A stretch of DNA of 64,000 nt from a virus (taxonomy: Duplodnaviria; Caudoviricetes): IMG/VR virus record IMGVR_UViG_3300029305_005547, positions 96,001 through 160,000 of that record; one strand, 5' to 3'. The position numbers were made by a program, and so were the translations under genes. The notes beneath the pieces are model-generated. The model saw nothing but the letters and a program-made list of their open reading frames with translations. It was not told where the DNA came from and did not search any database. Positions 1 to 49,907 of this stretch are shown here, piece by piece; position 1 is the first letter of the stretch; every line of letters starts with the position of its first letter.

Positions 1-105
1 GGATCACTATCCGAATTATATGACCAACTTTTAGATGAAGAAGAAGCATATATCAAATCTCAATTAGATTCGCGAAACTACATGAATGACATGGACGGAA
101 TTTAG
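1..105 (+). CDS. 3' end of an upstream gene (partial); its stop codon lies inside repeat copy 1
   Basis: Frame 1 is open: GSLSELYDQLLDEEEAYIKSQLDSRNYMNDMDGI*, with TAG at 103-105 inside ACGGAATTTAG. Confidence 0.6.
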   Translation, partial: GSLSELYDQLLDEEEAYIKSQLDSRNYMNDMDGI

Positions 106-175
106 TTAAGTAAAATTTCTGTAAGTCTCGATATTTCTCGAGACTTACAGATTCTTTATTTAGCTAAATTAGTAA
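95..175 (+). repeat. 80-bp cassette repeat, copy 1 (extra T in core: CTAAATTAGTAA)
   Basis: Direct match to the other nine copies. Confidence 0.97.
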
Positions 176-3801: not shown

Positions 3802-3881
3802 ACGGAATTTAGTTAAGTAAGTTTTCTGTAAGTCTCGATATTTCTCGAGACTTACAGATTCTTTATTTAGCTAAATAGTAA
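3802..3881 (+). repeat. 80-bp cassette repeat, copy 2
   Basis: ACGGAATTTAGTTAAGTAAGTTTTCTGTAAGTCTCGATATTTCTCGAGACTTACAGATTCTTTATTTAGCTAAATAGTAA. Confidence 0.98.
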
Positions 3882-4428
3882 TGGACCTAGTAGTGGTTGT
3901 ATGCGTTCTCTTGAAGATCAATACGTTTTAAAAATACAAGATGATAGTAATCTTGTAGTGTATAAAGTAAGTGATGATACAGTTGCATGGTCATCTAATT
4001 ATCATACACATAGTTATTTATCATTAGCAGGTGGTACATTAACTGGAACTATTTCAACTAGAGGTATTCAACCTTCTACTACAGCTACATATTCATTAGG
4101 CACAACACAATATATGTGGTCTGGAGTATGTTCTAAATACTTCTATTCTATTGGCACTGACACTGGGGTATATGCACAAATATATCCTGCTACATTAGGT
4201 ACAACAAGTACTGTTGGTAAAGCATATGTTCATGTTGGTAATAATACAGCGTCAGGTACTGCTAAGAATGCTAGAGGATATTTAAGATTATTTGGTTCAT
4301 CATCAGGATATACAGATATTCAAACAGGATATAACTCTACATCAAATATTACACTTACACTTCCTAGTAAAACAGGTACTATTCCTATTGTATCTTTATC
4401 TGGTACAACTTTAACTATTACTACTTAG
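3871..4428 (+). CDS. Silent tail-fibre tip cassette 2 (bulb-lectin-like motif plus fibre repeat; ends LSGTTLTITT)
   Basis: In frame from LNSNGPSSGC; QDDSNLVVY motif; SYLSLAGGTLTG...GYLRLF segment resembles the tip of 40210-42090. Confidence 0.85.
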   Translation, partial: LNSNGPSSGCMRSLEDQYVLKIQDDSNLVVYKVSDDTVAWSSNYHTHSYLSLAGGTLTGTISTRGIQPSTTATYSLGTTQYMWSGVCSKYFYSIGTDTGVYAQIYPATLGTTSTVGKAYVHVGNNTASGTAKNARGYLRLFGSSSGYTDIQTGYNSTSNITLTLPSKTGTIPIVSLSGTTLTITT

Positions 4429-4439
4429 GAGGTATAAAT

Positions 4440-23486: not shown

Positions 23487-23499
23487 GAGGTATTGTGAT

Positions 23500-29352: not shown

Positions 29353-29363
29353 GGAGGTATAAT

Positions 29364-30476: not shown

Positions 30477-30487
30477 GGAGGTATAAT

Positions 30488-31873: not shown

Positions 31874-32055
31874 TTAATAAATGATAAACAGATTTGTAAT
31901 GGATAATTCCATATAAAAATACTAATTTGGTCTTTTTAAAGAATCAAAATCGAACACAAAGTACCTTTCGAGATAGGATACATTTTTGTATCCTATCTCA
32001 CTTTCATTTTTCATTATAGTGACAGTCCCATAAAATCTTAAAAGGAGATTATTTT

Positions 32056-33240: not shown

Positions 33241-33327
33241 AGAAGTATATTATTTATTTGAAATAGTTGAGAAGGATATAGTAAAAACCTTCTCAACTAT
33301 AAATTTTTATAGTAAAGGAGATTTAAA

Positions 33328-33669
33328 ATGAGTACAGTGGATGTAGCACAATTTAGACAAAATTTTCACGTCCCAAAAGAAGCATTTAGAGAACTTATTA
33401 CATTATATGATCTGAGTTTTGTAGATCTTAAAGTAATTTGCTATTTGCTTACAGTATTAAGTGGTTATAACAAAACCCGTCGTATTAATACGACAAATCC
33501 AGGACCTGATCCTAATAATTTTACAAAGATCCATATAGATCTAATGAGTGAAGAATTAGGAATCAAAGTAAAGAAAATAAAAAAATCTATTAAATACCTT
33601 ACTGAAATACAGGTTTTAGAAAAAGGAAATGGAGCTGCTGTAAAAGGTGGTTACAGATTTACATTTTAA
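33328..33669 (+). CDS. Small winged-HTH-like DNA-binding protein
   Basis: DLMSEELGIKVKKIKKSIKYLTEIQVL pattern. Confidence 0.55.
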   Translation: MSTVDVAQFRQNFHVPKEAFRELITLYDLSFVDLKVICYLLTVLSGYNKTRRINTTNPGPDPNNFTKIHIDLMSEELGIKVKKIKKSIKYLTEIQVLEKGNGAAVKGGYRFTF

Positions 33670-33680
33670 AGGAGGACAAA

Positions 33681-35054
33681 ATGGAAACTACTGTAGAAAA
33701 CACTAAAATTATTATCCCTATTAACTTCACACATAGTGCAGACATCGATGGTATTGTGTGTGGAATCTTAACCAATTCTATATGTCTTGGTGGTGTAAAT
33801 TGTGGTGATGCTTATTTTGCTAAACCATTTATAATTGGAATGCCTGCTAATACAGAGCAGATGGAATCTATTATACAAGAAAAGATTACGCATAAAAATA
33901 TTACAGACTATACTGAATATGCATGCAGTTCACATTATACATCAGACACAATAGAAGGTGAAAACCTTGAATACCTTATTATTGTAACTGATTTACATGT
34001 ACCTACTGTATTTATTGATTATGTGAAGAAAGTTATCACTGATTGCTATCCTGATTCACATATTGGATTTTGGGAATTTGATCATCACGCATCAAACCCT
34101 GAATTTGGTAAATTTACATATAATTTCAATGAAGATGAATTTTATCTTCCTGAAAGAGTATGTATCTGCGATAACTATTTCAAAACACATGGAAAGTGTA
34201 AAGTTCCGGAATTAGATATTACATTTAATAAATTATGTGGTGCAAAAGATATAAAACGAGAAATTGAAGAATTGATTGTACAATATAAACTCGATGGTGG
34301 TCTTTCTGTTGCAGAAAGGTCTGCCGCATATGTATACTTTAGATTTCTTCTTGATATGGGATTATTTGATTTTCATGATTTAAATTTCATGATAAACTTG
34401 ATCAAACTTGTATATCATACATCTATGTATGATACCTTTGAGTTTTCAAAGAAAGATAGAGATTGTGTTATTGACCATGATTACATGGATGCTTTAACTG
34501 TTTTATGGAAAAGCTATAAAGGAGATTTCTTCAGATTCTTAAATATGGTTTATGATTCATTAGATGATATACCTTTAGTTGGTGAATATGAATATCTTCC
34601 AACTCTTCCGAAATCAGAACTTTTGAAATTGTCTTTCTTGTTTGATCAGAGAAAGACAGAATACAGAGGAGTGACTAAAGGTATAAGAGTATTTCCATAC
34701 GAACGAATTAAATATGCGTTGAATCTTGAATGTAATGAAGAGCTTAAATATGAAGATAACGTAGCCGTAATTCTTCAGGATGTCACGGATGCGTCTTTTG
34801 TAGGAAATACTCTCTTAAAAGATTATCCAAAAATCAAATTAGTTATTATGTTATTTACAAATTCTCGTACTGCATCTTTCAGGAGTAGTAATCTTATTGA
34901 TGATGCTCCTGATTGTGGTAAGATTGCTACTTTAGATTTAAATGGTGGTGGTCACAAACATGCTGCTGGTGCTGTTTTGTCTCAGGATAAGTTTATTAAT
35001 ATCTTAACTTTATTCTGGAATACAGATAAAGCTAATATGGATGATTATAAGTAA
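33681..35054 (+). CDS. DHH/DHHA1 family phosphoesterase
   Basis: THSADIDG, VTDL, FDHH, GGGHKHAAG. Confidence 0.88.
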   Translation: METTVENTKIIIPINFTHSADIDGIVCGILTNSICLGGVNCGDAYFAKPFIIGMPANTEQMESIIQEKITHKNITDYTEYACSSHYTSDTIEGENLEYLIIVTDLHVPTVFIDYVKKVITDCYPDSHIGFWEFDHHASNPEFGKFTYNFNEDEFYLPERVCICDNYFKTHGKCKVPELDITFNKLCGAKDIKREIEELIVQYKLDGGLSVAERSAAYVYFRFLLDMGLFDFHDLNFMINLIKLVYHTSMYDTFEFSKKDRDCVIDHDYMDALTVLWKSYKGDFFRFLNMVYDSLDDIPLVGEYEYLPTLPKSELLKLSFLFDQRKTEYRGVTKGIRVFPYERIKYALNLECNEELKYEDNVAVILQDVTDASFVGNTLLKDYPKIKLVIMLFTNSRTASFRSSNLIDDAPDCGKIATLDLNGGGHKHAAGAVLSQDKFINILTLFWNTDKANMDDYK

Positions 35055-35270
35055 GACGAAATAAAGGGATCTTTTGGATCCCTTTATTTTTTTATTAGTA
35101 TAACAAATCTTTAATGGATAATATCCATATGAAAATTCCAATAATAGAGCAGATTACTCATTATTTAGAGGTAAACTTGCATGTAATAACTTTTGTTCTG
35201 GTGAGAGTAGGATTTGGCTACCTACTCTCACCAGCTCCGTTCTTTTTGTATGATTTTTTGGAGTGTGGGG

Positions 35271-35350
35271 ACGGAATTTAGTTAAGTAAAATTTCTGTAA
35301 GTCTCGATATTTCTCGGGACTTACAGATTCTTTATTTAGCTAAATAGTAA
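35271..35350 (+). repeat. 80-bp cassette repeat, copy 8
   Basis: Direct match. Confidence 0.97.
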
Positions 35351-35627
35351 GGTGGATAAATCGGGAATTGTTTTTAGAAATTTTAGATCATTTTCAGTTA
35401 AAAGTACAAATCCTATTGCGGTAAACGCTTATGAAATAATCACCCTAGATTTGTCTTCATATAATTATACAAAAAGTCCACATGCATTTATTTCTTCAAC
35501 TTTTTTATGTTCAGTTACTATATCTAATACATCGGCAACTTCAGTAACAGTTACATTATATAATTTATACGGATCATCTCAACAGTGCAGTTGTGTAATA
35601 TATTTATTTGAGTTAAATTCAGTATAA
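35340..35627 (+). CDS. Silent tail-fibre tip cassette 8
   Basis: In frame LNSKVDKSGIVF...; small beta-rich domain; no RBS. Confidence 0.8.
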   Translation, partial: LNSKVDKSGIVFRNFRSFSVKSTNPIAVNAYEIITLDLSSYNYTKSPHAFISSTFLCSVTISNTSATSVTVTLYNLYGSSQQCSCVIYLFELNSV

Positions 35628-35722
35628 TAAATAAATGAGAATGAAGATATCTTCATTCTCATTTATTTTTCCACATAAATACTACAAATAAAAACATTAT
35701 ACTAAACTATTAAAACGAAAGG

Positions 35723-37267
35723 ATGATAAAGACTATGGATCCTTTAATGAATAACTCCGTAATCAATTTCATTGACGAAGTTAATAAGCAGCGTTCTTTA
35801 GACGAATCTATCAACAAGATCAATGATGATCCGGTTGTGAAACTCCGTCGTTTGAACGAGACTAAACAACAGGGTGTCAATGCTTGTATGAATTCTATAT
35901 TAGCTAAAATCTGCAAAGATGCAGTTCCCGAGGTTAACGGACGAGTAGCTTCTACTCCCGATTTGGATAAAGTAGTAGCAGACTATGTTTCCAGAAGAAC
36001 CGGTGGAAAAGACTTAGAGTTCTATGTAAAAGAAGCAATCAGACGTAACCCTAAGAACACATCAGTGATTAAGAACGTATTTGAATCTGTAGAGCGTATC
36101 GTAAGAGAGCAATACACAGACAAATCTCTCAATCCTGATACAATTACCGAAGATGATTACAAGTTTGAAATAACTCCTGAGATTGATGACAAACTCGTTG
36201 CAGTCATTCGTGATAATAATCTTGATGATCTTGCAGAAGTTATCAAAGATAACGTAAGAGAAACTGCAATCTCTGAAGTAGAACTTGCGAAAAAAGAAAA
36301 AGAAGAGCGTTTAGCTCTTGAAGAAGAACTTACTAACGATGAATCTATCACTACAGAAGCTGCTCTTGAAGAAGCTTTAAGAGAAAGAGGAATCGGTAAG
36401 ACTACTTCTATCTATACACCTTCATTATTTGAAGCTGTTATGGTTAATAAGTTTAATTCTATGAATATGACAGAATCTGTCATCACAGATGTTACTTATG
36501 AAGCCGGATATGTTACTGAAGGTGTAATTGATAAACTTAAAAACGCATTCAAGGCTAAATCAGAGGCTGATGCAAAAGAAACTATTGCAAAGAATCATTC
36601 AAATTTCCTTGCAAATATCGAAGAATGGTACAAAACTGTCTACTCTGATTACCGCAGCAAGATTAGTCCGGTTGACTTTAAGAAATTAGCAAAGACTGCT
36701 AAAGAAATTTTAGCAGATCCTCATGTTGATAACATTACTGTCAATGGTCCCATTCTTTCTGATGTTAAAGATGCATCTGTATCCTATAAAGATAACATGA
36801 AGAATCTCATGAATGAGAAGAAGTATGTAGCGTTTAGCGTTCCTACATCTAAGAAGAGTTATCCTGCAAAAGATGCTATAGATGAAATGATGAAAGCAGT
36901 AGATGCTCTTGACAGTTATTTTGAAAAGCCTGATGTTAAATCATACGTTAACAAAGCATCTGCATACATCAGTGCTAAAGCTAACAAATGTGAAAATCCT
37001 AAGGATGTCAAGACTGTTTATGATCTTGGTGTTCAGTATTATCTTGCAGATTTGGCATACTACATGGTTGCGATTACATTTGTAGATTCTGTAGTTAGTG
37101 CTATGAAGCAGATGATTAAGACATATGAAAAAGTTGCTGTTAAGGAAGCAGCATTTGATGCTGCAGTAACAGAGTATACTTTACTTAGTCTTTCTAAAGC
37201 GTTATATCTTGAAAGTTTTAAACTTGCAGATATTGACAGCTTAGCTAAGGAATATGCTATGAATTAA
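35723..37267 (+). CDS. Probable virion/inner-head protein
   Basis: Late promoter AACA-N6-TAAA; many xxES/xxEA motifs. Confidence 0.55.
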   Translation: MIKTMDPLMNNSVINFIDEVNKQRSLDESINKINDDPVVKLRRLNETKQQGVNACMNSILAKICKDAVPEVNGRVASTPDLDKVVADYVSRRTGGKDLEFYVKEAIRRNPKNTSVIKNVFESVERIVREQYTDKSLNPDTITEDDYKFEITPEIDDKLVAVIRDNNLDDLAEVIKDNVRETAISEVELAKKEKEERLALEEELTNDESITTEAALEEALRERGIGKTTSIYTPSLFEAVMVNKFNSMNMTESVITDVTYEAGYVTEGVIDKLKNAFKAKSEADAKETIAKNHSNFLANIEEWYKTVYSDYRSKISPVDFKKLAKTAKEILADPHVDNITVNGPILSDVKDASVSYKDNMKNLMNEKKYVAFSVPTSKKSYPAKDAIDEMMKAVDALDSYFEKPDVKSYVNKASAYISAKANKCENPKDVKTVYDLGVQYYLADLAYYMVAITFVDSVVSAMKQMIKTYEKVAVKEAAFDAAVTEYTLLSLSKALYLESFKLADIDSLAKEYAMN

Positions 37268-37309
37268 ATATATCACCTTACTCCAAATCGGAGTAAGGTG
37301 ATAATTATT

Positions 37310-38830
37310 TTATTTTATTGAATCTGATAATAATGTGAATTCATCTAATGATAATTCATTATTAATAAATGATTCTTTTAAAGCAGATTCAGTTGTAGTT
37401 GTTGATTTAATTTCTTCTACTGGAATAGGAAGGCTTGTATCTACATAAATAGATCCAGCATTGAATGATTTACATGTAGGATCAATAAATGCAGTTCTTA
37501 TATTTTCTTTTGGAGTATATCGTGACAGATCAGATTCTGGAACATCCTCACCTCTGTAATCTTTACTAAGAGTAAAATATACTCTTTTTGTAGGGTATAA
37601 TTTACTGCCTTCACGTTTTCCTTTAAAAGATGGAATCAATTCTTTTATTCCTTTTTTAGGTGAAACATGAAGAAGCATTGTTTCATTAGGAATTGTTATT
37701 TTTCTTGGTTCAGCTTCAGTGTAATCGCATATAGCTTTATCACCGTCAACAGTAATTTTTTTGATAATAGAATTTTTTCCAATACCAAAAAACTTACAAA
37801 TCCAATTAAATGCTTTCTTGTAAATAGTATAATTATTACTATTTTTAGCAATGTCATAATTAGATCTTATTTCTTTCTTGTCCTTATTAGAAATATCCTT
37901 TTCAGAAATTTCATCTTTAAGATTTTCACTTGCTTTTTTCCAAGTATCCTTTAAAAATTTAGTTCCTGAAATAGATCTTGTAATTTCTCCTATTTTTTCT
38001 TTAATTCCTTCCTGATATACTTCATCATCTTCAACAAATTTAAGACCGTAATATTCCATAAAATCTTCAAGATTATCAAATTCTGGTCCTAAATCATAAT
38101 CAACATATTCTTGTACTAAATCATCAGATTTTTTCAATATGTCCTGAATTTTCTCTACTTTAATAGGAGATGATGTAACAACATAAACAGCACCCATTGT
38201 ATATGTTGGAACTAAAGGATCTAAATATGCAGTCTTTATATTTTCAGTACATACATAAGTAGTGGTTTTCTCATTTTGTTTAATATCTGCTGCAAATTTT
38301 GGCATTTCTTTTCTCAAAGTAAAATACACTCTTTGATCTGAATACATATAACTTTTAGCAGATTTACCTTTAAATTGAGGATTTAAAGATTTAATAGAAT
38401 CATTGGTTGATGTATGATATAAAATACTACCATTAGGAATAGTAATCTTTTTAGGAGCAACGCCATAAAGAATTTCTACAGAATTATGCTCTTTATCTTT
38501 ATTCAATTTATATTGAACGATAACTACATCATTTTTAGGTATACCTGTAAGTTTACACAGTTTATTATAATAAATTTTATATTCAGTAAACGTGGATGAA
38601 GCTCTCATATCATGCAATGCTTTTGAAATTTCATGAAATTTATCTTCATCCAAATCTTTTTCTTCATAAGTTTTTGTAGCTTTTGTTGTAGGTATCCAGT
38701 CTTTTTCAATACTTAATCTATCTTTAAGTTCTCTTACTTTAGAACCAATTTTACCACGAACAGATTCTTCTACTACATCAGAGTTCTTATAGTTAGTAAC
38801 TATATTTAATAATGCTTCATAATTAGCCAT
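37310..38830 (-). CDS. Late protein with two tandem paralogous domains, possibly ADP-ribosyltransferase-like
   Basis: KITIPNGSILYHTS...LNPQFKGK...RVYFTL...GAVYV is repeated as KITIPNETMLLHVS...LIPSFKGK...RVYFTL...GSIYV. Confidence 0.55.
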   Translation of the reverse strand: MANYEALLNIVTNYKNSDVVEESVRGKIGSKVRELKDRLSIEKDWIPTTKATKTYEEKDLDEDKFHEISKALHDMRASSTFTEYKIYYNKLCKLTGIPKNDVVIVQYKLNKDKEHNSVEILYGVAPKKITIPNGSILYHTSTNDSIKSLNPQFKGKSAKSYMYSDQRVYFTLRKEMPKFAADIKQNEKTTTYVCTENIKTAYLDPLVPTYTMGAVYVVTSSPIKVEKIQDILKKSDDLVQEYVDYDLGPEFDNLEDFMEYYGLKFVEDDEVYQEGIKEKIGEITRSISGTKFLKDTWKKASENLKDEISEKDISNKDKKEIRSNYDIAKNSNNYTIYKKAFNWICKFFGIGKNSIIKKITVDGDKAICDYTEAEPRKITIPNETMLLHVSPKKGIKELIPSFKGKREGSKLYPTKRVYFTLSKDYRGEDVPESDLSRYTPKENIRTAFIDPTCKSFNAGSIYVDTSLPIPVEEIKSTTTTESALKESFINNELSLDEFTLLSDSIK

Positions 38831-38933
38831 AGTTATTTCCTTTCTATAAAGTTTATTAATAATTTGTTTCGAGCCTTAAAATACCTCAAAATAAACTATA
38901 GAAACAACTTATTTATAAGAAAGGAGTGTAATT

Positions 38934-39227
38934 ATGTTAAATTCAAACCAATTTTCAGATTTAGATGCTGCTAAAAGCGATCTTGAAAGCAAACAGATTA
39001 TTTTAAAGACAGGAATTGATGTGCAGGCATTGCTTAGAATTTTAGTCGATAAAGAAATAATCACAAGAGAAGAAATTAATAAATATAGAGAAGAGGTAAG
39101 TTCTTCTCCAAAATATGCAAATGCTCTTAAATATGTTGAGCAAACCCTTGAAGAAATTAAATATTACGAGACTCATCCTCAAGAGAGATTGCAGGAAATG
39201 TTTAGACGAAAGATGCAGGAAAAATAA
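38934..39227 (+). CDS. Hypothetical protein
   Basis: AAAGGAG RBS. Confidence 0.7.
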   Translation: MLNSNQFSDLDAAKSDLESKQIILKTGIDVQALLRILVDKEIITREEINKYREEVSSSPKYANALKYVEQTLEEIKYYETHPQERLQEMFRRKMQEK

Positions 39228-39228
39228 T

Positions 39229-39654
39229 ATGGACAATACAATTATAATTAAAAACTTTAATCCTGGTGCTAAAGGATTTAAAGTTATGAGAAAAGAACAA
39301 GAAGGATGTTCTGTATTAGCAGAATTTAAAAGAATACCAGATACAGGAATTGGTGATATGAGTGATGGATACCATACTTTTAATGAATTATATCACCATA
39401 GAGCAATATTATTTTCTGTTATCTGTAATATGTTTAAAGATAAAGCATGGAAATCATTAATGCATCATGATGGTAAGATGTATGATGGTATGTTCATTGT
39501 AGGAATTGAAACACCTAATGGGCAAGCAACATATCATTATGATGTAGATCCTTATTTTGATTTATTTGATGTAAAGGAACTTGAAAATGCTCCGGAATGG
39601 GATGGTCACACACCTGATGAAGCAATTGAAAGAATTAAATCTTTGGTTGTGTAG
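39229..39654 (+). CDS. Conserved phage protein (YHTFNELYHHR type)
   Basis: SDGYHTFNELYHHRAILF...GQATYHY...APEWDGHT; ATG 39229 follows the previous stop. Confidence 0.7.
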   Translation: MDNTIIIKNFNPGAKGFKVMRKEQEGCSVLAEFKRIPDTGIGDMSDGYHTFNELYHHRAILFSVICNMFKDKAWKSLMHHDGKMYDGMFIVGIETPNGQATYHYDVDPYFDLFDVKELENAPEWDGHTPDEAIERIKSLVV

Positions 39655-39680
39655 TATCAGACTATTGAAGTCATGTGGTC

Positions 39681-39698
39681 ACGGAATTTAGTTAAGTA
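39681..39698 (+). repeat. Left 18 bp of the cassette repeat (half-site upstream of the expressed fibre)
   Basis: ACGGAATTTAGTTAAGTA is identical to repeat positions 1-18, then the sequence diverges. Confidence 0.9.
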
Positions 39699-39846
39699 TT
39701 CTAAACAAAACCCAAAAAGTTAAGTAACTTAAAAAAAATTATATTTAATCGATAAAATAACAAAAAAAGTAAGGGTAGTTACAGCTACCCTTACTTGAAT
39801 ATTCCAAGATTGGCTTGTATGAGCATTTTGACCTCTTGTTTTCTAG

Positions 39847-40017
39847 TTAGAACAACTGATCAGACAATGCCTGAATCAAAGCCATTCTAACTGAGAAAAT
39901 GTTGGCATATCTGTTTGGATCAGACTGCCAAGCTGTCATGAAACTAGCATCGGTATCAAAACCGTTTGCTAGTTTCATTTCGTTGTATAACTTTCTCAAG
40001 TTATCAATATAACTCAT
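39847..40017 (-). CDS. 56-aa hypothetical protein between the two half-sites
   Basis: AAGGAGG RBS before ATG 40017; TATATTATT promoter; terminator 39768-39796. Confidence 0.7.
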   Translation of the reverse strand: MSYIDNLRKLYNEMKLANGFDTDASFMTAWQSDPNRYANIFSVRMALIQALSDQLF

Positions 40018-40120
40018 GTTAAAACCTCCTTCCTTAGAATATTCATGATAATAATATATCATCGAAAATATAAGGATTTCAGAGATTTTTTTACACATCT
40101 ACACAGCTTTCTAATATAAA

Positions 40121-40134
40121 AACATTCTACTAAG
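40121..40134 (+). promoter_or_regulatory. Late-type promoter of the tail-fibre gene
   Basis: AACA-TTCTAC-TAAG; the same ACA-N6-TAA spacing recurs upstream of more than 15 genes. Confidence 0.7.
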
Positions 40135-40209
40135 TAATTACCATAGAGAAATCTATGGGTCTCAATTATTTTTTCATGAAAGAATAATAGAAAAGGAGGC
40201 GCTCGAGAT

Positions 40210-42090
40210 ATGGCGACTACAAGAAAACATATTGAGATGACCCGCATTGATTCAAGCGGTAATCAGGATATATTATATCCAAAGAATACACTCGCCGATG
40301 TCCACACAAGTTCGACATCCGGCGTTACAATTGAAGGAAAGGTAATGTTCTACGGTACTTGTTCTACAGCCGCTGCAACAGCTGCAAAAGTAGCTTCTGC
40401 AACAGGTTTTGTTCTTAAGGCAGGTGCTCATGTTACCGTTAAATTTACAAATGCTATTACTGTAGCAAGTGCTACATTGAACGTAAATAGTACAGGTGCA
40501 AAGGCAATTCATTACGAAGGTGCAGCTTTAAAGGCTAACGTTATTCGTGCTGGCGCTTCTGTTGAGTTCGTTTACGATGGTACTAATTACCTCGTAGTTG
40601 CAGGTGTAAATCCTGCATATGTTGAAAATAAGAATACCACTAAGTTCTACTTACTTGGTACTCCTAATAATGCAGCAGGAATGCCTTCTGCTGAATATTT
40701 TGATACTGGTGTTTATGTAAGTACAACATCAGGTCAGTTAGTTGCAACATCATTCTCTGGTAATGGTTCTGCATTAACAAACTTAAATGCAAGTAATGTT
40801 AAAAGTGGTACATTAGCAGCTGAAAGACTTGCTACATCTGGCGCAACAGCAGGTTCATATGGATCTTCTGCAGATGCAACTGTAGCAGATTCAGGATCAT
40901 TCACTGTGCCTTATGTAACAGTAGATGCATATGGTCGTGTAACAGCAATTAAAAACGTTACTCTTACATTGACAAGTGATGCTAACTCTGATACAAAAGT
41001 TACAAATACCTTGAATACTACAGCTAAAGCTTATATTACAGGTACTACTTCTGCAACAACAAATACTGGTACTCAGGTATTTGATACTGGTGTTTACCTT
41101 GATACAACTGCAGGAAGACTTACTTCCAGCTCTTTACTTACCGGTACATGTTATTTAGGAAGTTCAACTTCTAACTACATTAACGGTACAAACTATACCG
41201 GAACTGCTGCAAAAGTTGGTACACTTTCTGGTTGGTTGATAGATAGTTGTGCTTCTGCAAGTGCTAACGGAGTAACCAATAAGGCGCTTACAGCAAACCA
41301 GGGCTATTTGTTGCAAAATCAGATTGATACACTAAATAGTAATATGAGTAGTTATTTACCTTTATCAGGTGGAACATTAACTGGTACATTAACAAGTAGA
41401 AATGTAACACCTAGTGCTAATGTATCATATTCATTAGGTTCGACAACAAGAGTATGGACAAATTCATTTGTTAAAACCATGTATATATATGATGGTACAA
41501 ATACATCATCTAATTGCGGAAGTTTTGCAGTTTCTAATGTAGGTACAACATCTGCAGAAGGAATAGCATATCTAATGGTTGGTAATGCTACTTCGTCAGG
41601 AACAGCTGGAAATTCTACTGGTAGATTGCGTCTTTATAATAAGTGGGGCGGTTATGCTGATATTATACCAACAGTTAATAGAAGAGATAATTATACTTTA
41701 AAATTACCTGGAGAAGCTGGAGTATTAGTGAGTGACAACACGATAAAACATGTTGTTGGTAGTACTAAGACTGGAAAAGTTAGTACAAATGAAATAGCTG
41801 GGTTGATTGGTGTTGGTGGAGTTATACTTTCTATGCAAGTATTTGCCCAGATAAATGGAAGTACTACTATTGTAGTATCAACGGAAATACCAAGGAAATC
41901 TGACGTTTCAAGAATAAGAGCAGGATATTTTCAAAATATGGGGGTTTCTGATTCTAATGGTGGAGCTGTATATTGGGATATAGATCAAAGTTTTAATATA
42001 TCTTTAGCATATGCCTATTTGAATGGTACTGAGTATTCAACTACAACAAAATGGTGGATTGAATATACTTATATTGACATTGTCTCATAA
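40210..42090 (+). CDS. Complete tail fibre (expression locus): 374-aa constant part plus exchangeable tip starting at LNSN
   Basis: AAAGGAGG RBS; Thr/Ala/Gly-rich fibre repeats, PYVTVDAYGRVT motif; CTAAATAGTAA at 41332-41342 in frame. Confidence 0.92.
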   Translation: MATTRKHIEMTRIDSSGNQDILYPKNTLADVHTSSTSGVTIEGKVMFYGTCSTAAATAAKVASATGFVLKAGAHVTVKFTNAITVASATLNVNSTGAKAIHYEGAALKANVIRAGASVEFVYDGTNYLVVAGVNPAYVENKNTTKFYLLGTPNNAAGMPSAEYFDTGVYVSTTSGQLVATSFSGNGSALTNLNASNVKSGTLAAERLATSGATAGSYGSSADATVADSGSFTVPYVTVDAYGRVTAIKNVTLTLTSDANSDTKVTNTLNTTAKAYITGTTSATTNTGTQVFDTGVYLDTTAGRLTSSSLLTGTCYLGSSTSNYINGTNYTGTAAKVGTLSGWLIDSCASASANGVTNKALTANQGYLLQNQIDTLNSNMSSYLPLSGGTLTGTLTSRNVTPSANVSYSLGSTTRVWTNSFVKTMYIYDGTNTSSNCGSFAVSNVGTTSAEGIAYLMVGNATSSGTAGNSTGRLRLYNKWGGYADIIPTVNRRDNYTLKLPGEAGVLVSDNTIKHVVGSTKTGKVSTNEIAGLIGVGGVILSMQVFAQINGSTTIVVSTEIPRKSDVSRIRAGYFQNMGVSDSNGGAVYWDIDQSFNISLAYAYLNGTEYSTTTKWWIEYTYIDIVS

Positions 42091-42225
42091 TCTATCTAGA
42101 TGATCCATGACTGAAAAGTTAATTACAGAATAAAAAATATGGTATACTATATAGTATACCATATTTTTACTCCGAAAATATCGAGAAAACAAAATATTAA
42201 TGTTGAAAGAAAGGAAATGAAACTC

Positions 42226-42399
42226 ATGAGTATTTTTACAAATTCTGAGAAAAACTTTCTTAGTTCTCTCGGTGATGAAATATTTGTAGAGTCTTCAAAG
42301 TCAGAATGTAAAAAAGTTTTTGATACGGCGTATAAAGTATTGGAAGAACTTGGGTTTACTCCAAATATCGGTAAAAAAGAAAAACTAAAAGTACTATAA
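42226..42399 (+). pseudogene. Apparently truncated late gene (MSIFTNSEK...)
   Basis: Late promoter and AAAGGA RBS, but it stops after 57 codons where the sequence switches to an adhesin-like frame. Confidence 0.45.
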
Positions 42400-42716
42400 A
42401 TACATCAGGAAATCTTATTACATTTAAAGCTCCATGTAAAAATTATAAATATGCTAAAGTTACTCTAGCATATGGTTATTATGCAAATTACGGTGATTTT
42501 AAAATCACTTATACATTACCCGGAGGAAGTACTGTTTCATTAATCGATAAAGCGTATAGTGATGGTCAAAGTGGTGGTATATTAACAAAAACATTTACCA
42601 TAGACACTTCTACATTAGCCAGTGATGATACAAGTACATTTAAAGGAACTCTATATCTATTAAATAGAAGTAGTAATAGTGTATATTGGGGTTTTAATGG
42701 TTGTATTGGAATATAA
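42375..42716 (+). pseudogene. Orphan 3' fragment of an adhesin-like gene
   Basis: Start-less frame TKSTINTSGNLITFKAPCKNYKYAKVTLAYGYY...; followed by TAATGGTTAGTTATA as after cassette 2. Confidence 0.6.
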
Positions 42717-42857
42717 AAAAATTGAATTGACTAACACAGCATAATGGTTAGTTATATTTTTATACAAGAGAAGACAATAAAGTCTTCTCTTGTATTATAT
42801 TTTTATCCATATATTATTATATTAGATAATTCTTAATATAATGAAAGAGGGATAAAA

Positions 42858-43445
42858 ATGAAAATATACATGTTTTATTTTAGAGATAAAGATGTTAATA
42901 GACGATTAGAACCAGTTCTTTATGCATATACGAATAGTAAAGAATTTGCTGAAAGATTTAAAGAATACCGTAATATGGATAAATTTATATGTTATGAAAG
43001 AGAACTTACGAAAGATCAGTTCAAAGACGTAACTAGAACGCATCCATCACAACAACTAACAGAAACAGAATTTGTTACAAAAGATCCAGAATTTCCAACT
43101 AAGAAAATGAATGTAAGTATTGTGTGTACATGGGATGAAGAAAAGGCTGTTATACTTGAAAGTGAAGATAGTGTCTTTAGATTATTTGAAAAACAGATGT
43201 TTGATCCATCTATGTTAAATATGGATATAAAAGGTATATTGTATAAATTTGGATTCTTTACGATATATCAATATTTGTACAATAATATGTACATATATAA
43301 TCCATTAGAAGGGTCTGAATATACTGGTGTGTTCTTTAAAGACGCTATTGCTGGAGACACAATAAGACCAGTTGCTAATATGCAAAATATTCATGCTGAT
43401 CAATTAGCAATGTTCATACATTTATTTGGAGGTACTGTAAAATAA
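42858..43445 (+). CDS. Hypothetical early protein
   Basis: TATATTATT motif, GAGG RBS. Confidence 0.7.
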   Translation: MKIYMFYFRDKDVNRRLEPVLYAYTNSKEFAERFKEYRNMDKFICYERELTKDQFKDVTRTHPSQQLTETEFVTKDPEFPTKKMNVSIVCTWDEEKAVILESEDSVFRLFEKQMFDPSMLNMDIKGILYKFGFFTIYQYLYNNMYIYNPLEGSEYTGVFFKDAIAGDTIRPVANMQNIHADQLAMFIHLFGGTVK

Positions 43446-43483
43446 TATGAAGGAAGACTATACAAATAGTCTTCCTTCTTTTT

Positions 43484-44803
43484 TTATTCATCTAAGTTAT
43501 CTACAAATTGAAATGTGAGATCTTCATCTCTATCAATAGTAATAAGCTTACGCTCTTTAGTAGATAAATCTTCATTAATCGATAATCCATATAAAGTATC
43601 TAAATCATCAGATACTGTAAATAAAACAAAATTATCATTTTCATAGTTCAGGATAGTTAACATATTATTTTCGTTATTATTCTTGATATTTGCAATCAGA
43701 ATTTTACAATCAAGTTCAGCCTGAATATACATCTTGAACTGATCGTCTATAACGAAATTAACTTTAACATTATCCCCTTTATCAATATATGATTTAACCG
43801 AGTCTGAATTAAATCTAAGTAAATCAGATTTTAATTTTTCCATATTCCCTGTAAGTGATCTGAAAATACCGGAATCACCGAAAACTGTAATATCAGACTC
43901 AGATTTACCCGAAAATTCGGGAGTAAAAATTTCAATATCAGAAGTATTTTCAAAGAAAGGTGTACATATAGCATTTTCAGATACTTTCTTTACAAATCCT
44001 GTTTTGTAAAGATGTAATGCTAATGTAACATCTTTTGCTTTTATTTCTAAATTTTCATTTTTGTTGTCACCATTTCTTCCATGAATAAATAACAGAACAA
44101 ATGGATCAGCAGCGTCATTAGATCCACGAATCAGATCAACATCAAAATTGTAAAGTTCGTAAAGTGACGATAACACATATGCGAAATCATTCGAATCCAT
44201 AGGTTTACAGAATCTCGTGTATTCTAACAACTTAAAGAAGTAATTAAAGAATGACTCTGTTAAAGTATACTCTTCTTTACTTCCCATGTATTTATATAAT
44301 AACATACATGTTCTTACACAAGGTTCCAAAATGGATTCTAATAAAAATCTTGATATCGTTTCATAATCTTTTTTTGAATGATAATTCCACATAAACATGA
44401 TATATTTCTTTACGAAGTAGCATATTTTGTAATACAGTTCTCTCACATTATCAATAGAACCTATTGTCAATGTTGAAAGATAGGTATCGAAATTCCAAAT
44501 GAATTTACCTTCATTAGTAGCTTCCTTATAACTAGGAAGTGGCTTTAATAAAGGATTATTAATCCATTTTAATCTGATATCATCAATATGCTTTGTATTT
44601 GCAACAATAAGACCATTATCATCTCTCATAAGTGGTACTTTACCATCTAATCCAAAATGGTCTTTATTCTCAATAATTATTCTTTGAACTTGGAAAGGGA
44701 GTATTGAAAATACTTTTCCCAAAAACAAAGCATCATTTTTATCAATAGAACCATTAGAGAAAGATTTTAATCTATCTCCATAATCTTGTCTTATTAAATT
44801 CAT
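43484..44803 (-). CDS. Hypothetical protein
   Basis: 439-aa ORF with AAAGGA RBS. Confidence 0.7.
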   Translation of the reverse strand: MNLIRQDYGDRLKSFSNGSIDKNDALFLGKVFSILPFQVQRIIIENKDHFGLDGKVPLMRDDNGLIVANTKHIDDIRLKWINNPLLKPLPSYKEATNEGKFIWNFDTYLSTLTIGSIDNVRELYYKICYFVKKYIMFMWNYHSKKDYETISRFLLESILEPCVRTCMLLYKYMGSKEEYTLTESFFNYFFKLLEYTRFCKPMDSNDFAYVLSSLYELYNFDVDLIRGSNDAADPFVLLFIHGRNGDNKNENLEIKAKDVTLALHLYKTGFVKKVSENAICTPFFENTSDIEIFTPEFSGKSESDITVFGDSGIFRSLTGNMEKLKSDLLRFNSDSVKSYIDKGDNVKVNFVIDDQFKMYIQAELDCKILIANIKNNNENNMLTILNYENDNFVLFTVSDDLDTLYGLSINEDLSTKERKLITIDRDEDLTFQFVDNLDE

Positions 44804-44817
44804 AATAGTTTTCCTTT

Positions 44818-45615
44818 CTAAGGCATGAAGATTTTTTCAACTTCATCATTTAAAAATTTCTGTTTTGCAACTAATAAATAGTTAAGAAACTTTACATGAT
44901 TCTTATCTTCAATCTTAACGTAATTAAACGTATTTTTATTTGATTTCATAACAGCATCTTTAAGTTTTTCTTTAACCTTATCGACATCCTGAATCTTATG
45001 ATGGGTGTTAGGGTTACTACCACCATCTTTAATTTCAACTTCAAGATTTAATGAAGGAATAAAAAAATCTGGGATATAAAAATGCTTTTCTCCGTTATAC
45101 TCATAATAATACGTATGAGGAGACGGAGAAATAATATCCCTAGGATTAAAATGAAGATCCAAATCAAGAAATTCCAAAAACGCTTTTTCATAACTCCCCG
45201 TATAAGGAATTTTAATTCTTGGATCATCACTCCACGGATATATACCGGAAATCTTTCTATTTGCAAGCATTTTCTTTTGGTGTTCAGGATCGTTGAGTAA
45301 AGTAACTTTCCCATACTTGCCAATCATTCTTTCTTTAAATATTTCTTTATATTTCTCCTTACAACGAGGATCATTACAAAATCTATTGTATTTATGTGTA
45401 GTTTCATTCCAATCGGTTTCTTCTTTACACATAACACAACTACCTTTAAGTTTTCCAGTCTTTTGATAGTAATAATATCTCCACCCTGAGAAATCAACAG
45501 GAAGAAAATCTTCGTGTTCGGTTTCTAAATGAATTGTATATGCATCAGGGTCTAAAAAATAAGTATCACAAAACTGGCAATGAATTTTTCTTCTATTTCT
45601 CATTTTCGTTGCCAT
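44818..45615 (-). CDS. Zn-finger plus PD-(D/E)XK (TnsA/head-completion-like) nuclease
   Basis: CQFC...H...H, CVMC, C...C; YEKAF...HFYIPDFFIPSLNLEVEIKD. Confidence 0.7.
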   Translation of the reverse strand: MATKMRNRRKIHCQFCDTYFLDPDAYTIHLETEHEDFLPVDFSGWRYYYYQKTGKLKGSCVMCKEETDWNETTHKYNRFCNDPRCKEKYKEIFKERMIGKYGKVTLLNDPEHQKKMLANRKISGIYPWSDDPRIKIPYTGSYEKAFLEFLDLDLHFNPRDIISPSPHTYYYEYNGEKHFYIPDFFIPSLNLEVEIKDGGSNPNTHHKIQDVDKVKEKLKDAVMKSNKNTFNYVKIEDKNHVKFLNYLLVAKQKFLNDEVEKIFMP

Positions 45616-45785
45616 AGTTGTTACCAGCCTTTCATAAATTCATTAAAATATTGTCGTCTATACTTTATTATTATATCTATTTTTTTTATAGTGAAATTCT
45701 TAAAATAAACTAAATCTATATCAATCACAATACTATAAGTACATATGTTTTAATATTCTAAATATTAAAGAAAGGAAATAACAAC

Positions 45786-46928
45786 ATGGAATTTCAAGAA
45801 TTGAAATACTTGGCTTTAGAATCAGCTGGTTATATTACAGAAGATGATTCATTATTTTTAGCAGAAGAAAAATCAATTGAAGACGTTGTTCTTGATAATA
45901 AAAAAGCTTTTGTAGTTGGTGGTGTTATTACTGCTATAGGTGCAGTATCTGCTGGAATTGCAGCTTTTATTCGCGACAAAAAAGCTAAAGATGTCATAAA
46001 GTCACATTCTGAACTTAAAGACATTGATGAGAAAATTAAAAAATCTAAAGATACTATCAAATCCCTTAAGAAAAATCTCAATTCTGATATATGGAAATAT
46101 GCAAAATTATCTACTGACGCGGATAGACTTGCGGATTTATTTGGTGCTAAAACTAAACAGGTTTATGATGGTTTCTATAAATATGATGAAACCATAGTTA
46201 ATAGATATAGAACTGAGGCTAATCCTGATTTTGATCCTAAGAAGGCTGCTGAATGGAAGAAAACAAGTGATGATGCTATGGAATGCATTTCTCGTATTAA
46301 GGATGGTAAGAAAACTTTAAAAGCGGAATTTTCAAATCTTAAGACATATCACAAGGAATTGAAAAGTCTTGCAAGAAAGTATGCAACAGCTACTCCTGAA
46401 GCTACAGAAAGATTAATTTCTTGTGTAGACAAATCTATTGAAGAAATAGATAAGTGTATATCATCAATAGATGATTTTATCAATAGTAATGAAAAATTAC
46501 TAGAGTCTGCAGATGAAATAAAGTTATCTATTTTTGAATCTCATCGTTCAGGAGATATTACTGACGAAGAAAAAACTGAATTATTGGCTTTAGTTCAGGA
46601 AGGTGTGATTGATAAAATCAAATCTAAATTTAATAAGAAAAATAATTCCTCTACCACGGATACTAATAATAATATTCCATCTATAAAAGATGAAATATCA
46701 CGTTTAAAAGAAGTAAAATCCGAAACAAAAAGTGATATTGATAAAATTAATGAAGCAAAGCAAAAACTTCTGGATGCAAAAAACAAGATGAATACAAGTA
46801 AAAATGTATCACCTGTTATTGAATCTTCAATGTCAGTTAATTCATTAAAACTTGAAATTTATGAGTCTTGTCATACAGGTGACATTACCAAAGAAGAAAG
46901 AGATATTCTTCTTGATATGGTTGAGTAA
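45786..46928 (+). CDS. Probable inner-head protein with two KLxI(F/Y)ES motifs
   Basis: IKLSIFESHRSGDITDEEK and LKLEIYESCHTGDITKEERDILL; late promoter. Confidence 0.6.
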   Translation: MEFQELKYLALESAGYITEDDSLFLAEEKSIEDVVLDNKKAFVVGGVITAIGAVSAGIAAFIRDKKAKDVIKSHSELKDIDEKIKKSKDTIKSLKKNLNSDIWKYAKLSTDADRLADLFGAKTKQVYDGFYKYDETIVNRYRTEANPDFDPKKAAEWKKTSDDAMECISRIKDGKKTLKAEFSNLKTYHKELKSLARKYATATPEATERLISCVDKSIEEIDKCISSIDDFINSNEKLLESADEIKLSIFESHRSGDITDEEKTELLALVQEGVIDKIKSKFNKKNNSSTTDTNNNIPSIKDEISRLKEVKSETKSDIDKINEAKQKLLDAKNKMNTSKNVSPVIESSMSVNSLKLEIYESCHTGDITKEERDILLDMVE

Positions 46929-46975
46929 AGGATTTGATGCGCTACTGTAGTTGAAGATATTAGGTAGGGGGTTGG

Positions 46976-47055
46976 ACGGAATTTAGTTAAGTAAAATTTC
47001 TGTAAGTCTCGATATTTCTCGGGACTTACAGATTCTTTATTTAGCTAAATAGTAA
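46976..47055 (+). repeat. 80-bp cassette repeat, copy 9
   Basis: Direct match. Confidence 0.97.
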
Positions 47056-47413
47056 CGCATCTGTTATTGGAGATATATTTACATCATATGGACAAATGAC
47101 ATGTGTTGGAAGTGAAGGTGGTGGAACTGGAAGTACAAGTACAAATGTAAATGACATACCTAATGGTATTTACTGCGCAATTATCACAGTTGAAGCATGG
47201 GTTGGACAAAATACAAACGTACAAATAAATTCTAATGGCATCAATACCAATAATACATTTATGTATGCATATCAGACAGGAAGAAATACAATTCAGCATG
47301 TATCTATAGTAAATATAACTAACGGCATATTTACAATTTATTTATTTCATAATGATTCTGTAAGTGAGGCACGTGCATTTAATTGGCGCGTTACATTAGT
47401 ACGTATAAAATAA
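47045..47413 (+). CDS. Silent tail-fibre tip cassette 9
   Basis: In frame LNSNASVIGDIFTSYGQMTCVG... Confidence 0.8.
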   Translation, partial: LNSNASVIGDIFTSYGQMTCVGSEGGGTGSTSTNVNDIPNGIYCAIITVEAWVGQNTNVQINSNGINTNNTFMYAYQTGRNTIQHVSIVNITNGIFTIYLFHNDSVSEARAFNWRVTLVRIK

Positions 47414-47516
47414 ATTACAATATATTATGAAGAGAATACAATATGTATTCTCTTCATAATTTTCAATAATTTATTATCTAAAATACACTTGAATAAGAAA
47501 GGATTGGTAATATATC

Positions 47517-47936
47517 ATGGCTATAGATCCTGGATTTGGAACCGATAATTTCGGTAATCCTAAAATGTATTCAGAAACAGAAACACTGGCAAAAAATATT
47601 TTAACAGTGTTATTTGGTAAAAAAGGAGCATATCCTACATTACCTAATCTTGGAATGGATGTCGCTAGATACGTTTTAACTATGTTTGATGAAATAAAAG
47701 AAGATGATCTTAAAACTGAATTAGTTCAGAATTGTTCATCTTTTTCTGGTGTAGTTAACAACGGAGATTTTGATGTCATAAAGACAATTCTCAAAGATCA
47801 GTATGGTAATGATGCTCCTACTATTTTATTTAAAATTCCTACTATGATAAAAAATGTAAGTAGGAGTCTTATCATTGGAATTACTGCATCCAATAACCAA
47901 GTAGAATATAATTTTAATTGGAGTACGGATGTGTAA
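47517..47936 (+). CDS. gp25-like baseplate protein
   Basis: NILTVLFGKKGAYPTLPNLG matches the gp25 ..L.T.KG.....P.FG pattern. Confidence 0.65.
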   Translation: MAIDPGFGTDNFGNPKMYSETETLAKNILTVLFGKKGAYPTLPNLGMDVARYVLTMFDEIKEDDLKTELVQNCSSFSGVVNNGDFDVIKTILKDQYGNDAPTILFKIPTMIKNVSRSLIIGITASNNQVEYNFNWSTDV

Positions 47937-47967
47937 TACATAACAAAAAAGAAAGGAAACTAAAATT

Positions 47968-49686
47968 ATGAGTGAAACAAAAATAACTCAGAATAGTAAT
48001 CTGGATGTAGCTGCCCTTTTCCAGACTGCTAAAGGAAATGCAAATTCAGAAGAACCAATAGCTACACCTAGTGCAGCTGTTAATAAAACACCTTTACAGA
48101 TGATGCAGGAGCGTCAGGGAAAAGGTGTTCCTATCGTAAATAATAATGATGATGGTCCTAAACGTGGTGGTTCTATGACTGATGAAAGAATCGACAGTGT
48201 TCAGAAGACTATGAATGACATGGATGAACTTGCTGAAAAAGCAAGACTTGTAGGAATTACTAAGCGTCCAGAAACTGACCTTGAAATGGCTGAACTCGTT
48301 GACAGATTGGATAAACTTGATATCGATGATCTTAGAGCTGCAAATCAGGAAGCTGCAGTTGAAGACGGAGATAATGTAGTTCAGTCCAGTGACGTTATTG
48401 GATCAGATATTTCTGCAGATACAATTATTGCTGGTGAACAGCGTAATATTGACAATTCAGGTTTATTTGTACCTGCTTCTGCAGTTAAAGAAAATGCTGG
48501 TGAAAACAAGCCTGAAACCCCTGTAGCTGCTCTTACAAATGCAGAAGATACTTCAAAGGTATCTGTACTGATCGAGAAAGAAGCTACTAAAGAAGGAGAT
48601 AGAACTGTAGTTGAGTTTACTCCTGAAGAAAGAGAAAAGATGAGTGTTGCTAAGCAAATTGAACTCATCACAGTTAATACAATTAATATTAATACCGGTA
48701 AAGTTGTTAAGCCGGATGAAAACTTTTTAAAAGATTTCACGAGTCAGGTTCGTAAGTCTATCGGAGTATCTGCACTGATGACATTTGTAGCATCCAGATT
48801 CAGAGTGACTTTACGTGGTCTTACTTTCGGTGAATATATGGATTTGGCATTATCAGCAGATATTACAGAGGTTGAAACTTTAACAAAGAAACTTTCTGTA
48901 ATTTATAATGCAATTATCAATTCATCAATTGGTATGTTTACAAGTTTTGATGATTTCCTTCGTAATTTTGCATTCAAGGATGTGTCTCTTGGAACATATG
49001 GTCTTTACATTGCTACAAATCCTGAATCTCTTGAACTTGGTTTGCTTTGTGGAGTTGATTCTTGTAAGAAGAATTTCTCTGTAGGATTCAATCCTCGTAA
49101 TCTTCTTATTACTAAGAGACTCAGTCCTCGTTTTATTGAGATCATGGAAACTGCAGGTAGCCTTGATGGTGAAGAAGCTGTTAAATATCACAATGATTCT
49201 TCTATTATTACAAAGCAGATCATTGAACTCCCTGGAACCGGTGTAGGACTTGAAATTGGTAACAGATCATGTTATGATATGATTCATTCAGTACTTCCGT
49301 TTATTAATGATATTGAAGCTATTATGAATGAGAAGCATCCGGATGATACCAATAAGGTTCGTGAAATTATTACTTATGTAACTAATTACGTAAGTGCAAT
49401 CTACTTCAAGGATGAAAACCAGGAATACACCATCCGTGAAGATAATATCGAAAATATCGTTGAAGTTCTTTATAACGTACCTCTTACTGATTATGAGATC
49501 ATCTCTGCTATTATGAATCAGACCGACGAAGATTACGCATACTCATTCGGTGTACAGAATGTAGTTTGTCCTAGTTGTGGTAATGTAACGGAGGTTGTCG
49601 CTGTTGACATTGATGAAGAGGTTTTTCGTCAGTTCCAGGAACTGGGCAGTACGCGAATCGACAAAAAGAGTTTACCGCGTCTCTAG
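47968..49686 (+). CDS. Baseplate-hub/tail assembly chaperone-like protein with Zn ligands; probable -1 frameshift extension to 49874
   Basis: CGVDSC and CPSCG; overlapping start-less -1 frame 49617-49874. Confidence 0.6.
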   Translation: MSETKITQNSNLDVAALFQTAKGNANSEEPIATPSAAVNKTPLQMMQERQGKGVPIVNNNDDGPKRGGSMTDERIDSVQKTMNDMDELAEKARLVGITKRPETDLEMAELVDRLDKLDIDDLRAANQEAAVEDGDNVVQSSDVIGSDISADTIIAGEQRNIDNSGLFVPASAVKENAGENKPETPVAALTNAEDTSKVSVLIEKEATKEGDRTVVEFTPEEREKMSVAKQIELITVNTININTGKVVKPDENFLKDFTSQVRKSIGVSALMTFVASRFRVTLRGLTFGEYMDLALSADITEVETLTKKLSVIYNAIINSSIGMFTSFDDFLRNFAFKDVSLGTYGLYIATNPESLELGLLCGVDSCKKNFSVGFNPRNLLITKRLSPRFIEIMETAGSLDGEEAVKYHNDSSIITKQIIELPGTGVGLEIGNRSCYDMIHSVLPFINDIEAIMNEKHPDDTNKVREIITYVTNYVSAIYFKDENQEYTIREDNIENIVEVLYNVPLTDYEIISAIMNQTDEDYAYSFGVQNVVCPSCGNVTEVVAVDIDEEVFRQFQELGSTRIDKKSLPRL

Positions 49687-49907
49687 AAAATTTTCTAGAA
49701 TTTTTTAAGGGATCTCTTACATTAGATGATATCCTTAATAAATTGCCTTATAAAACGTTACTTGGTTTACGAGATGCCAAGTTAAAACGCCTGGAAGAAG
49801 AACAAAAACACCAAAAAGAACTTGAAAACAATCAACGTTCAATGAATATTCAAAATGCAATTCTTACTAAGTAAGAAAAAAATAAATGATGTTGAGGTAG
49901 AAAAATA

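Follow-up and report, generated by a model that had tools for sequence, protein, structure and literature searches.

A tail-fibre expression module that probably trades places with hairpin cores at dispersed silent tips in a jumbo gut phage

The expression locus

The 64,000-nt stretch of DNA analyzed here (the window) corresponds to bases 96001-160000 of the IMG/VR record IMGVR_UViG_3300029305_005547 (Duplodnaviria; Caudoviricetes), a 278,849-bp virus genome with a G+C content of 32% that is 100% complete according to CheckV. The subject is a tail-fibre gene, at what is termed locus E, whose promoter region and constant part lie inside an 80-bp repeat and separate its left end (L) from its right end (R). 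Positions refer to the window unless they are given as genome positions. The locus is composed of the following features, in which aa stands for amino acids and ORF for open reading frame.

39681..39698, plus strand: L end, the first 18 bases of the repeat, ACGGAATTTAGTTAAGTA; identical in all module-bearing and all empty contigs
39699..41331, plus strand: expression module of 1633 bp in place of the 51-bp hairpin core; exactly 51 bp are present there in contigs L018 and L020
39718..39727, plus strand: second AGTTAAGTAA, within the left end of the module; its GTTAAGTAA core lies 28 nt downstream of that in the L end
39767..39796, minus strand: terminator-like hairpin behind a small minus-strand ORF; it scores as a minus-strand terminator
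39847..40017, minus strand: 56-aa ORF with its stop codon (39850-40017 without it), matching no family
40018..40209, plus strand: intergenic stretch with a GGAGG ribosome-binding site and the presumed fibre promoter, as judged from the sequence
40210..41331, plus strand: constant fibre codons 1-374, delimited by homologue alignment
41332..41342, plus strand: R end, the last 11 bases of the repeat, CTAAATAGTAA, encoding L-N-S-N(1-2) of the fibre; the swap boundary in run X8 and contig L009
41343..42090, plus strand: tip E, 252 aa counted from L375, apparently the tip currently expressed; silent behind an intact repeat in L018-L021

A first-pass annotation had described this arrangement as a split repeat, and the description proved accurate: the 18-mer and the 11-mer are both exact, and the 1633 bp that separate them take the place of the 51-bp hairpin core seen in 18 other copies. 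It had also placed a second AGTTAAGTAA near 39718 and listed the module contents as a terminator, which is the hairpin that scores on the minus strand, a 56-aa ORF, a ribosome-binding site and 374 fibre codons, all of which were found. The fibre ORF (40210..42090) encodes 626 aa and is preceded by the GGAGG ribosome-binding site before its ATG at 40210. Codon 375 begins at position 41332, since (41332-40210)/3 = 374, and CTAAATAGTAA is therefore read in frame as codons 375-378. Homologues of the fibre (58-95% identity) align with it as far as the sequence QNQIxxLN(S/C)(N/K) and are unrelated beyond this point.

Searches of Pfam, PHROGs and NCBIfam with the fibre, the tips and the 56-aa ORF gave no family match, a PDB sequence search with the fibre alignment gave no match, and a search of a phage GenBank collection returned relatives for the neighbouring WDGH gene only. 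A scan for sigma-70 promoters found sites no commoner than in shuffled sequence, and when the two junctions at the occupied locus were folded, they showed no more structure than shuffled sequence. The motif ATAATAATATATC is present in four intergenic regions, at 7744-7779, 16077-16112, 25924-25963 and, within the intergenic stretch of the module, 40040-40079; it is probably a phage promoter element.

The repeat and its start-less reading frames

Full copies of the repeat consist of ACGGAATTTAGTTAAGTA (L), a 51-bp core and CTAAATAGTAA (R), the layout of the core being A(G/A)(T/A)TTT CTGTAAGTCTCGA-TATTTC-TCGAGACTTACAG ATTCTTTATTTAG. The 18-mer occurs 11 times in the window, compared with 0.15 expected, and 19 times in the genome (14 on the plus and 5 on the minus strand), whereas full repeats of about 80 bp number 10 in the window and 18 in the genome (13 plus, 5 minus). 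These sites lie on both strands, scattered across ~155 kb, and 13 of the 18 point in the same direction as the expression locus. The 9-mer GTTAAGTAA, for which ~3.8 copies per strand are expected in 279 kb, has just 5 copies outside the repeats. Folded as a single plus strand, the repeat forms a 14-bp outer and a 14-bp inner stem (-17.7 kcal/mol, z = -7.3) that include two G.T pairs formed on the plus strand only, and the core variants form a mosaic across the 18 copies.

In 16 of the 18 repeats the frame of CTA (L-N-S-N/K) enters a stop-free ORF of 94-457 aa that is without a start codon. The triplet directly 5' of this CTA is a stop in all 16, namely TAG in 15 and TAA in one minus-strand copy (genome 56879). 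The other two repeats are damaged, the copy at window position 95 by an extra T and the one at genome 41518 by the absence of its right end. The phage holds at least 16 promoterless tail-fibre tips dispersed over its genome. A scan of IMG/VR for the 18-mer returned a single chance match only (L001), and an Rfam search at a permissive threshold with the left part of the module and one full repeat gave sub-threshold chance matches only.

The module at several sites in public assemblies

Contigs in public assemblies were located by exact matches to proteins encoded in this region, and they reveal one locus in two states within one strain. Contig L018 (82 kb, ENA ERZ27248370) is 100.000% identical to the window over 31762-39698 (7,937 bases) and 41332-50090 (8,759 bases), and the sole difference at locus E is a 51-bp core instead of the 1633 bp; the same is true of L020. 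Both contigs contain, in this order, the WDGH left-flank gene, the same 26-nt spacer, an intact 80-bp repeat, tip E and the downstream genes. In run X9, the WDGH flank enters a canonical-form repeat and the module is present on a separate 7.7-kb contig, and in run X4 the Logan unitigs break exactly at both module ends (39681-39710; 41332-41342).

The module itself was found at several sites. A look-up of the small ORF led to 28 contigs. In those that were compared, 15 contigs from about 15 samples and three assemblers, the module is base-identical, with 0 differences in 1,662 bases. Its left neighbour is the locus E flank in seven contigs, the left flank of the repeat at 57792 in L027 and L033 (524 nt each), L029, L082 and L083, the left flank of 35271 in L028, L036, L038 and L017 (45-91 nt), and the left flank of 95 in L008, a strain with 94% identity. 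The tip 3' of the module is E in most contigs and the tip at 57861 in L036 (123 nt), and in the diverged strains L008 and L009 two further tips follow the module. As the bases shared at each junction (18 or 11) are fewer than any assembly word, each junction must exist in the reads, and the near absence of change, with 0 differences in 16.7 kb of flanks and 0 in 1,662 bases of module, indicates that the events are very recent. A metagenome_contigs scan with the left end of the module gave no match in that collection, which may leave out near-identical records. One of the contigs above, L028 (JGI 3300022654), matches the window exactly as far as 40784, but 30 of the next 90 positions (40785-40874) differ; this suggests a recombinant constant region from another strain.

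The first-pass annotation had proposed two models, a module that moves between repeat sites and a fixed locus into which tips are copied, each with its own refuting condition, and had named the left neighbour of the module as the feature to check. This neighbour is not always the locus E gene, and the flanks of other repeats (57792, 35271 and 95) were found instead. The condition set against the fixed locus, an intact repeat at E, was found in L018 and L020. As an intact repeat is present at E and the module on other flanks, the first model holds. The cores themselves were also found to shuffle between sites: the site at 57792 carries three core variants in different contigs of the same strain, or the module, and the core at the empty locus E of L018 is a variant found solely at 57792 in the reference.

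The corresponding system of a sister phage

A sister phage, represented by contigs L010-L014 and L041 and by the genome G003 (275,512 bp, with terminal repeats), has a fibre front that is 66% identical. Its repeat of 83 nt, GGAACCAATTTTGTTAAGT / core / AAACTGCAAC, forms a homologous hairpin and has 36 copies in G003, and in each of the 26 distinct copies examined it opens a frame N-C-N... of 89-275 codons. The junction of the sister fibre, CTAAACTGCAAC (L-N-C-N), matches the end of the sister's own repeat. The left end of this repeat lies ~160 nt 5' of the fibre start and a second GTTAAGTAA follows 28 nt later, so that the 28-nt spacing of two GTTAAGTA(A) is common to the modules of both phages. 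The sister's shorter module has no equivalent of the 56-aa ORF on that strand upstream of the fibre gene. The module occupies site 185925 in G003 and one site upstream, 185505, in L041, where the cassette that it would express is one of the silent ones of G003. Between the lineages the hairpin retains its outer stem, in which one change is compensatory and two are wobble changes. The design is thus conserved across lineages while L, R and the junction codons changed together.

Proposed mechanism

We propose, with a probability of roughly 0.8, that a movable 1.6-kb module of promoter and constant fibre part trades places with hairpin cores at dispersed tips. The moving unit would comprise the fibre promoter region, the 56-aa ORF and the 374 constant codons, in all 1633 bp bounded by L (18 bases) and R (11 bases). 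At silent sites the 51-bp core, with its terminator-like stem, its T-rich tail and the TAG just before R, would silence the start-less tip. Module and core would be swapped via breaks inside L and inside R that leave the flanking DNA unchanged. At the new site the constant fibre would become fused in frame to the local tip via L-N-S-N/K, and at the vacated site the old tip would be silenced behind a core; the exchange may be reciprocal. Movement of the module among tips implies that particles of one lineage differ in the tip that they display (16 tips here, ~35 in the sister phage). The tips are likely to bind receptors, and the system is probably a host-range switch that changes the host surface recognized.

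As to the enzyme, the sole tyrosine recombinase found is P0124 (genome 64172-65197), which combines a SAM-like core-binding domain (PF13495) with a catalytic domain (PF00589) and no arm-binding domain, the architecture of Xer-type enzymes; a search of the genome for serine recombinases found none. P0124 scores 231 bits against NF040815 (cut-off 220), a model named 'tyrosine recombinase/integron integrase', and homologues with 50-60% identity are common in gut Firmicutes as XerD. An orthologue with 73% identity is encoded in G003, so that the gene co-occurs with the repeat system in two related genomes. It is the best candidate enzyme because of the precedent of the Rin shufflon, in which a XerD-like enzyme acts on 11-bp asymmetric sites (PMC6109161). 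The chance that P0124 makes the exchanges at L and R is slightly below even. An attC-like site was ruled out, as the order of the boxes is reversed and the integron integrase models score far below their cut-offs (TIGR02249, 82.7 bits vs 265; NF011946, 50.6 vs 435).

A natural form of recombinase-mediated cassette exchange, in which a trans-acting Xer-like enzyme swaps the L-to-R contents, whether live expression module or silencing hairpin placeholder, between any two of 19-36 dispersed sites, is a tentative reading that we place somewhat below an even chance. If true, pairing the L of one site with the R of a different site would move stretches of ordinary genes to new places, which could explain why the tip library is scattered among essential genes such as that for DNA polymerase. 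Exchange in two steps could then also yield junctions of 57792 flank, module and tip E as circle or deletion intermediates.

Several points weigh against the proposal that the module trades places with cores. The module is longer than the reads, so that the pairing of left flank and tip across it is unreliable in contigs, and no contig phases the left flank of a new site, the module and the tip beyond the word length of the assembler. Mixed pairings were found, in which tip E goes with the 57792 flank and tip 57861 with the 35271 flank; they may be choices of the assembler, or could match the circle and deletion intermediates expected if the exchange took two steps (L x L, then R x R). Reciprocity is doubtful because, in sample ERZ27248370, locus E (L018) and site 57792 (L077) both carry the 57792-type core. 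The identity of the fibre is based on domains of its homologues (PF03406, PF13884, PF11962) and on YLPLSGGT motifs, the protein itself matching no family. Neither L nor R shows an evident two-armed core site, and R lacks conservation on its tip side, a site structure that is unusual for an Xer-type enzyme. Finally, the recombinase gene is ~70 kb away from the expression locus and ~6-7 kb away from the nearest repeats, and it could serve another purpose.

Weighing of rival explanations

A serious rival, which we consider possible rather than likely, dispenses with a dedicated recombinase: the hairpin would stall replication or be cut, and repair or template switching would copy module or core one way, using the 18-bp and 11-bp identities or, between silent copies, the full 80 bp (gene conversion or copy choice). 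The mosaic of cores among the 18 copies is what ordinary recombination of 80-bp repeats would give, ERZ27248370 contains an otherwise unique core at two sites, and a canonical two-armed site is not evident at R, since the tip side varies. However, 11 bases are very short for homology-driven exchange, and all breaks are exactly at L and R in two lineages in which the sequences of L and R differ. Furthermore, the second GTTAAGTAA at its conserved 28-nt spacing resembles a protein-binding site, and exactly one module is present in every complete genome seen.

That the junction variants reflect stable sub-strain differences or assembly chimeras, and not ongoing switching, is improbable. All evidence is from metagenome contigs, in which a module longer than the reads allows wrong flanks to be joined, and many of the samples are apparently from one campaign. 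Against this, L (18 nt) is too short to be an assembly word, so that the single junctions exist in reads, and the same junctions were obtained with megahit, in JGI assemblies and in Logan unitigs. The near-zero divergence of flanks and modules makes the events very recent, and both states were found in single samples (3300019378, with L029 and L080; ERZ27248446). The second model of the first-pass annotation, a fixed locus into which tips are copied, is partly right. In L009 (~5% diverged over the module) and run X8, the same left flank and module are followed by a different tip, with a break exactly at 41342/41343 and a right boundary near 42381, within a downstream gene. Tip replacement of this kind was seen between diverged strains only and also occurs, on a longer time scale. 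As the only mechanism, in the manner of pilE/pilS, it is refuted by the empty locus E with its intact repeat in the same strain (L018, L020) and by the module at other repeats, and we give it hardly any weight.

Further candidates were set aside. Ribosomal bypassing or trans-splicing over the hairpin was ruled out because the DNA itself occurs in both joined forms, and simple excision by L x R recombination because no 51-bp core would then remain. The module is also no autonomous element with a transposase or recombinase of its own, as it encodes just the 56-aa ORF and the front of the fibre.

Silent tips and neighbouring genes

The full repeats in the window, with their silent tips, are the following, all on the plus strand.

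95..174: repeat with damaged R end (an extra T gives LN*), with the DNA polymerase gene downstream; in L008 the module follows its left flank
3802..4428: repeat and silent tip, 185 aa
22120..22737: repeat and silent tip, 182 aa
22770..23486: repeat and silent tip, 215 aa
28948..29352: repeat and silent tip, 111 aa
29886..30476: repeat and silent tip, 173 aa
31202..31873: repeat and silent tip, 200 aa
35271..35627: repeat and silent tip, 95 aa; in L028, L036, L038 and L017 the module follows its left flank
46976..47413: repeat and silent tip, 122 aa
57792..58460: repeat and silent tip, 199 aa; the site was seen with three different cores or with the module

Four cassettes (4393-4478, 23451-23493, 29317-29402 and 30441-30526) share the end ...SLSGTTLTIT(T/L/I)*, which is followed by a ribosome-binding site and a companion gene of ~200-300 aa that starts M(A/S)I(V/I)..NGTTIP. 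These cassettes, each with two genes, form a sub-family, in which the conserved stretch could be a right-hand crossover region. Behind tip E, the segment 42227-42809 contains a 57-aa ORF that continues into ~430 bp sharing 92% identity with the 3' portion of a 200-aa gene that is intact in L009; it looks like the remnant of the companion gene of an earlier cassette, truncated by tip replacement. A G/T-rich tract (e.g. GGAGTGTGGGG or GGTAGGGGGTTGG) is located within the 25 nt 5' of most repeats of this 32% G+C genome, for example at 35255-35270 and 46960-46975, and is also seen in the sister phage (L010 9390-9403).

Between the repeats at 95 and 3802 are a 244-aa ORF (509-1243) and the DNA polymerase gene (1347-3458; phrog_2927, E 6e-79). 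In L008, the strain with 94% identity, the module stands directly behind the flank of 95, with a tip related to the 3802 cassette after it, and the polymerase gene and the 244-aa ORF are missing from the contig. Just 5' of the repeat at 46976, a 380-aa coiled-coil ORF (45786..46928, in the region 45684-46975) is missing from the strain of run X8, in which a repeat stands 30 nt after 45683. The gene that converges on the recombinase gene (genome 65255-66301; L039 3256-4302, minus strand) encodes a coiled-coil protein with a weak match to DUF4376 (E 6.5e-4), a domain often found near tail-fibre genes.

Relation to known systems

Literature searches on silent phage tail-fibre cassettes returned no account of a moving expression module. 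Of the known phage host-range switches, Gin, Cin, Min and Rin have from two to a handful of tips in a cluster, and diversity-generating retroelements mutate a single tip, whereas this lytic jumbo gut phage has 16 ready-made tips and its sister ~35. The phage would be a tractable model of viral host-range bet-hedging in the gut, and, if the enzyme and the two short sites were defined, a natural tool for marker-free cassette exchange would be at hand.

In the Rin shufflon of Bifidobacterium prophages, a receptor-binding protein consists of a constant N-terminal part and several start-less C-terminal alternatives, an 11-bp asymmetric repeat marks each junction, and the recombinase is XerD-like and without an arm-binding domain; the cassettes are clustered beside the constant part and the recombinase gene and are exchanged by inversion (PMC6109161). 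The system described here shares the constant front with start-less alternative ends and the short junction repeat, and its XerD-like enzyme is a candidate only. In contrast to Rin, the cassettes occupy both strands of a ~155-kb region, the recombinase gene is not beside the locus, and it is the promoter-bearing constant part that would move and trade with a 51-bp placeholder. No inversion within one clustered locus is needed for the occupied and empty states of E, the flanks of which are collinear and identical for ~8 kb on each side.

Among the Mycoplasma systems vsa (M. pulmonis, HvsR), vpma (M. agalactiae, Xer1) and vsp (M. bovis), a single promoter is put before silent incomplete genes by Xer-like tyrosine recombinases acting at short sites, and in vsa the promoter moves together with the 5' coding end (PMC2268961). 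Those switches are inversions within one compact bacterial locus, whereas here a virus would relocate a 1.6-kb module among dispersed sites, and the vacated site would regain a silencing hairpin. The R64/IncI shufflon (Rci) (PMC5430464) and Gin, Cin and Min (PMC6109161) place alternative C termini on one N terminus and so give heterogeneous receptor specificity. They differ from the present system in that inversion selects among 2-7 alternatives, and in Min, Gin and Cin it is carried out by serine recombinases, none of which was found here.

A promoterless library of partial genes with one expressed copy is also known from Neisseria pilE/pilS, Borrelia vlsE and the trypanosome VSG genes, where a cassette is copied into a fixed site. 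Here the expression site itself would move, although the tips can also be replaced, as the strain difference at 41342/41343 illustrates. In integrons, hairpin-forming attC repeats head promoterless cassettes and IntI is the integrase. The likeness extends to hairpin repeats before promoterless cassettes and to the name of the NCBIfam match, which includes integron integrase, but relative to the R''/R' boxes of attC the order of GTTAAGT and its partner is reversed, no cassette is excised and there is no attI/Pc array. The closest known systems are the Rin shufflon and the Mycoplasma expression-site switches; as in some bacterial antigenic variation, relocation of the expression site would select the tip, although the relocation would be a precise swap rather than an inversion.

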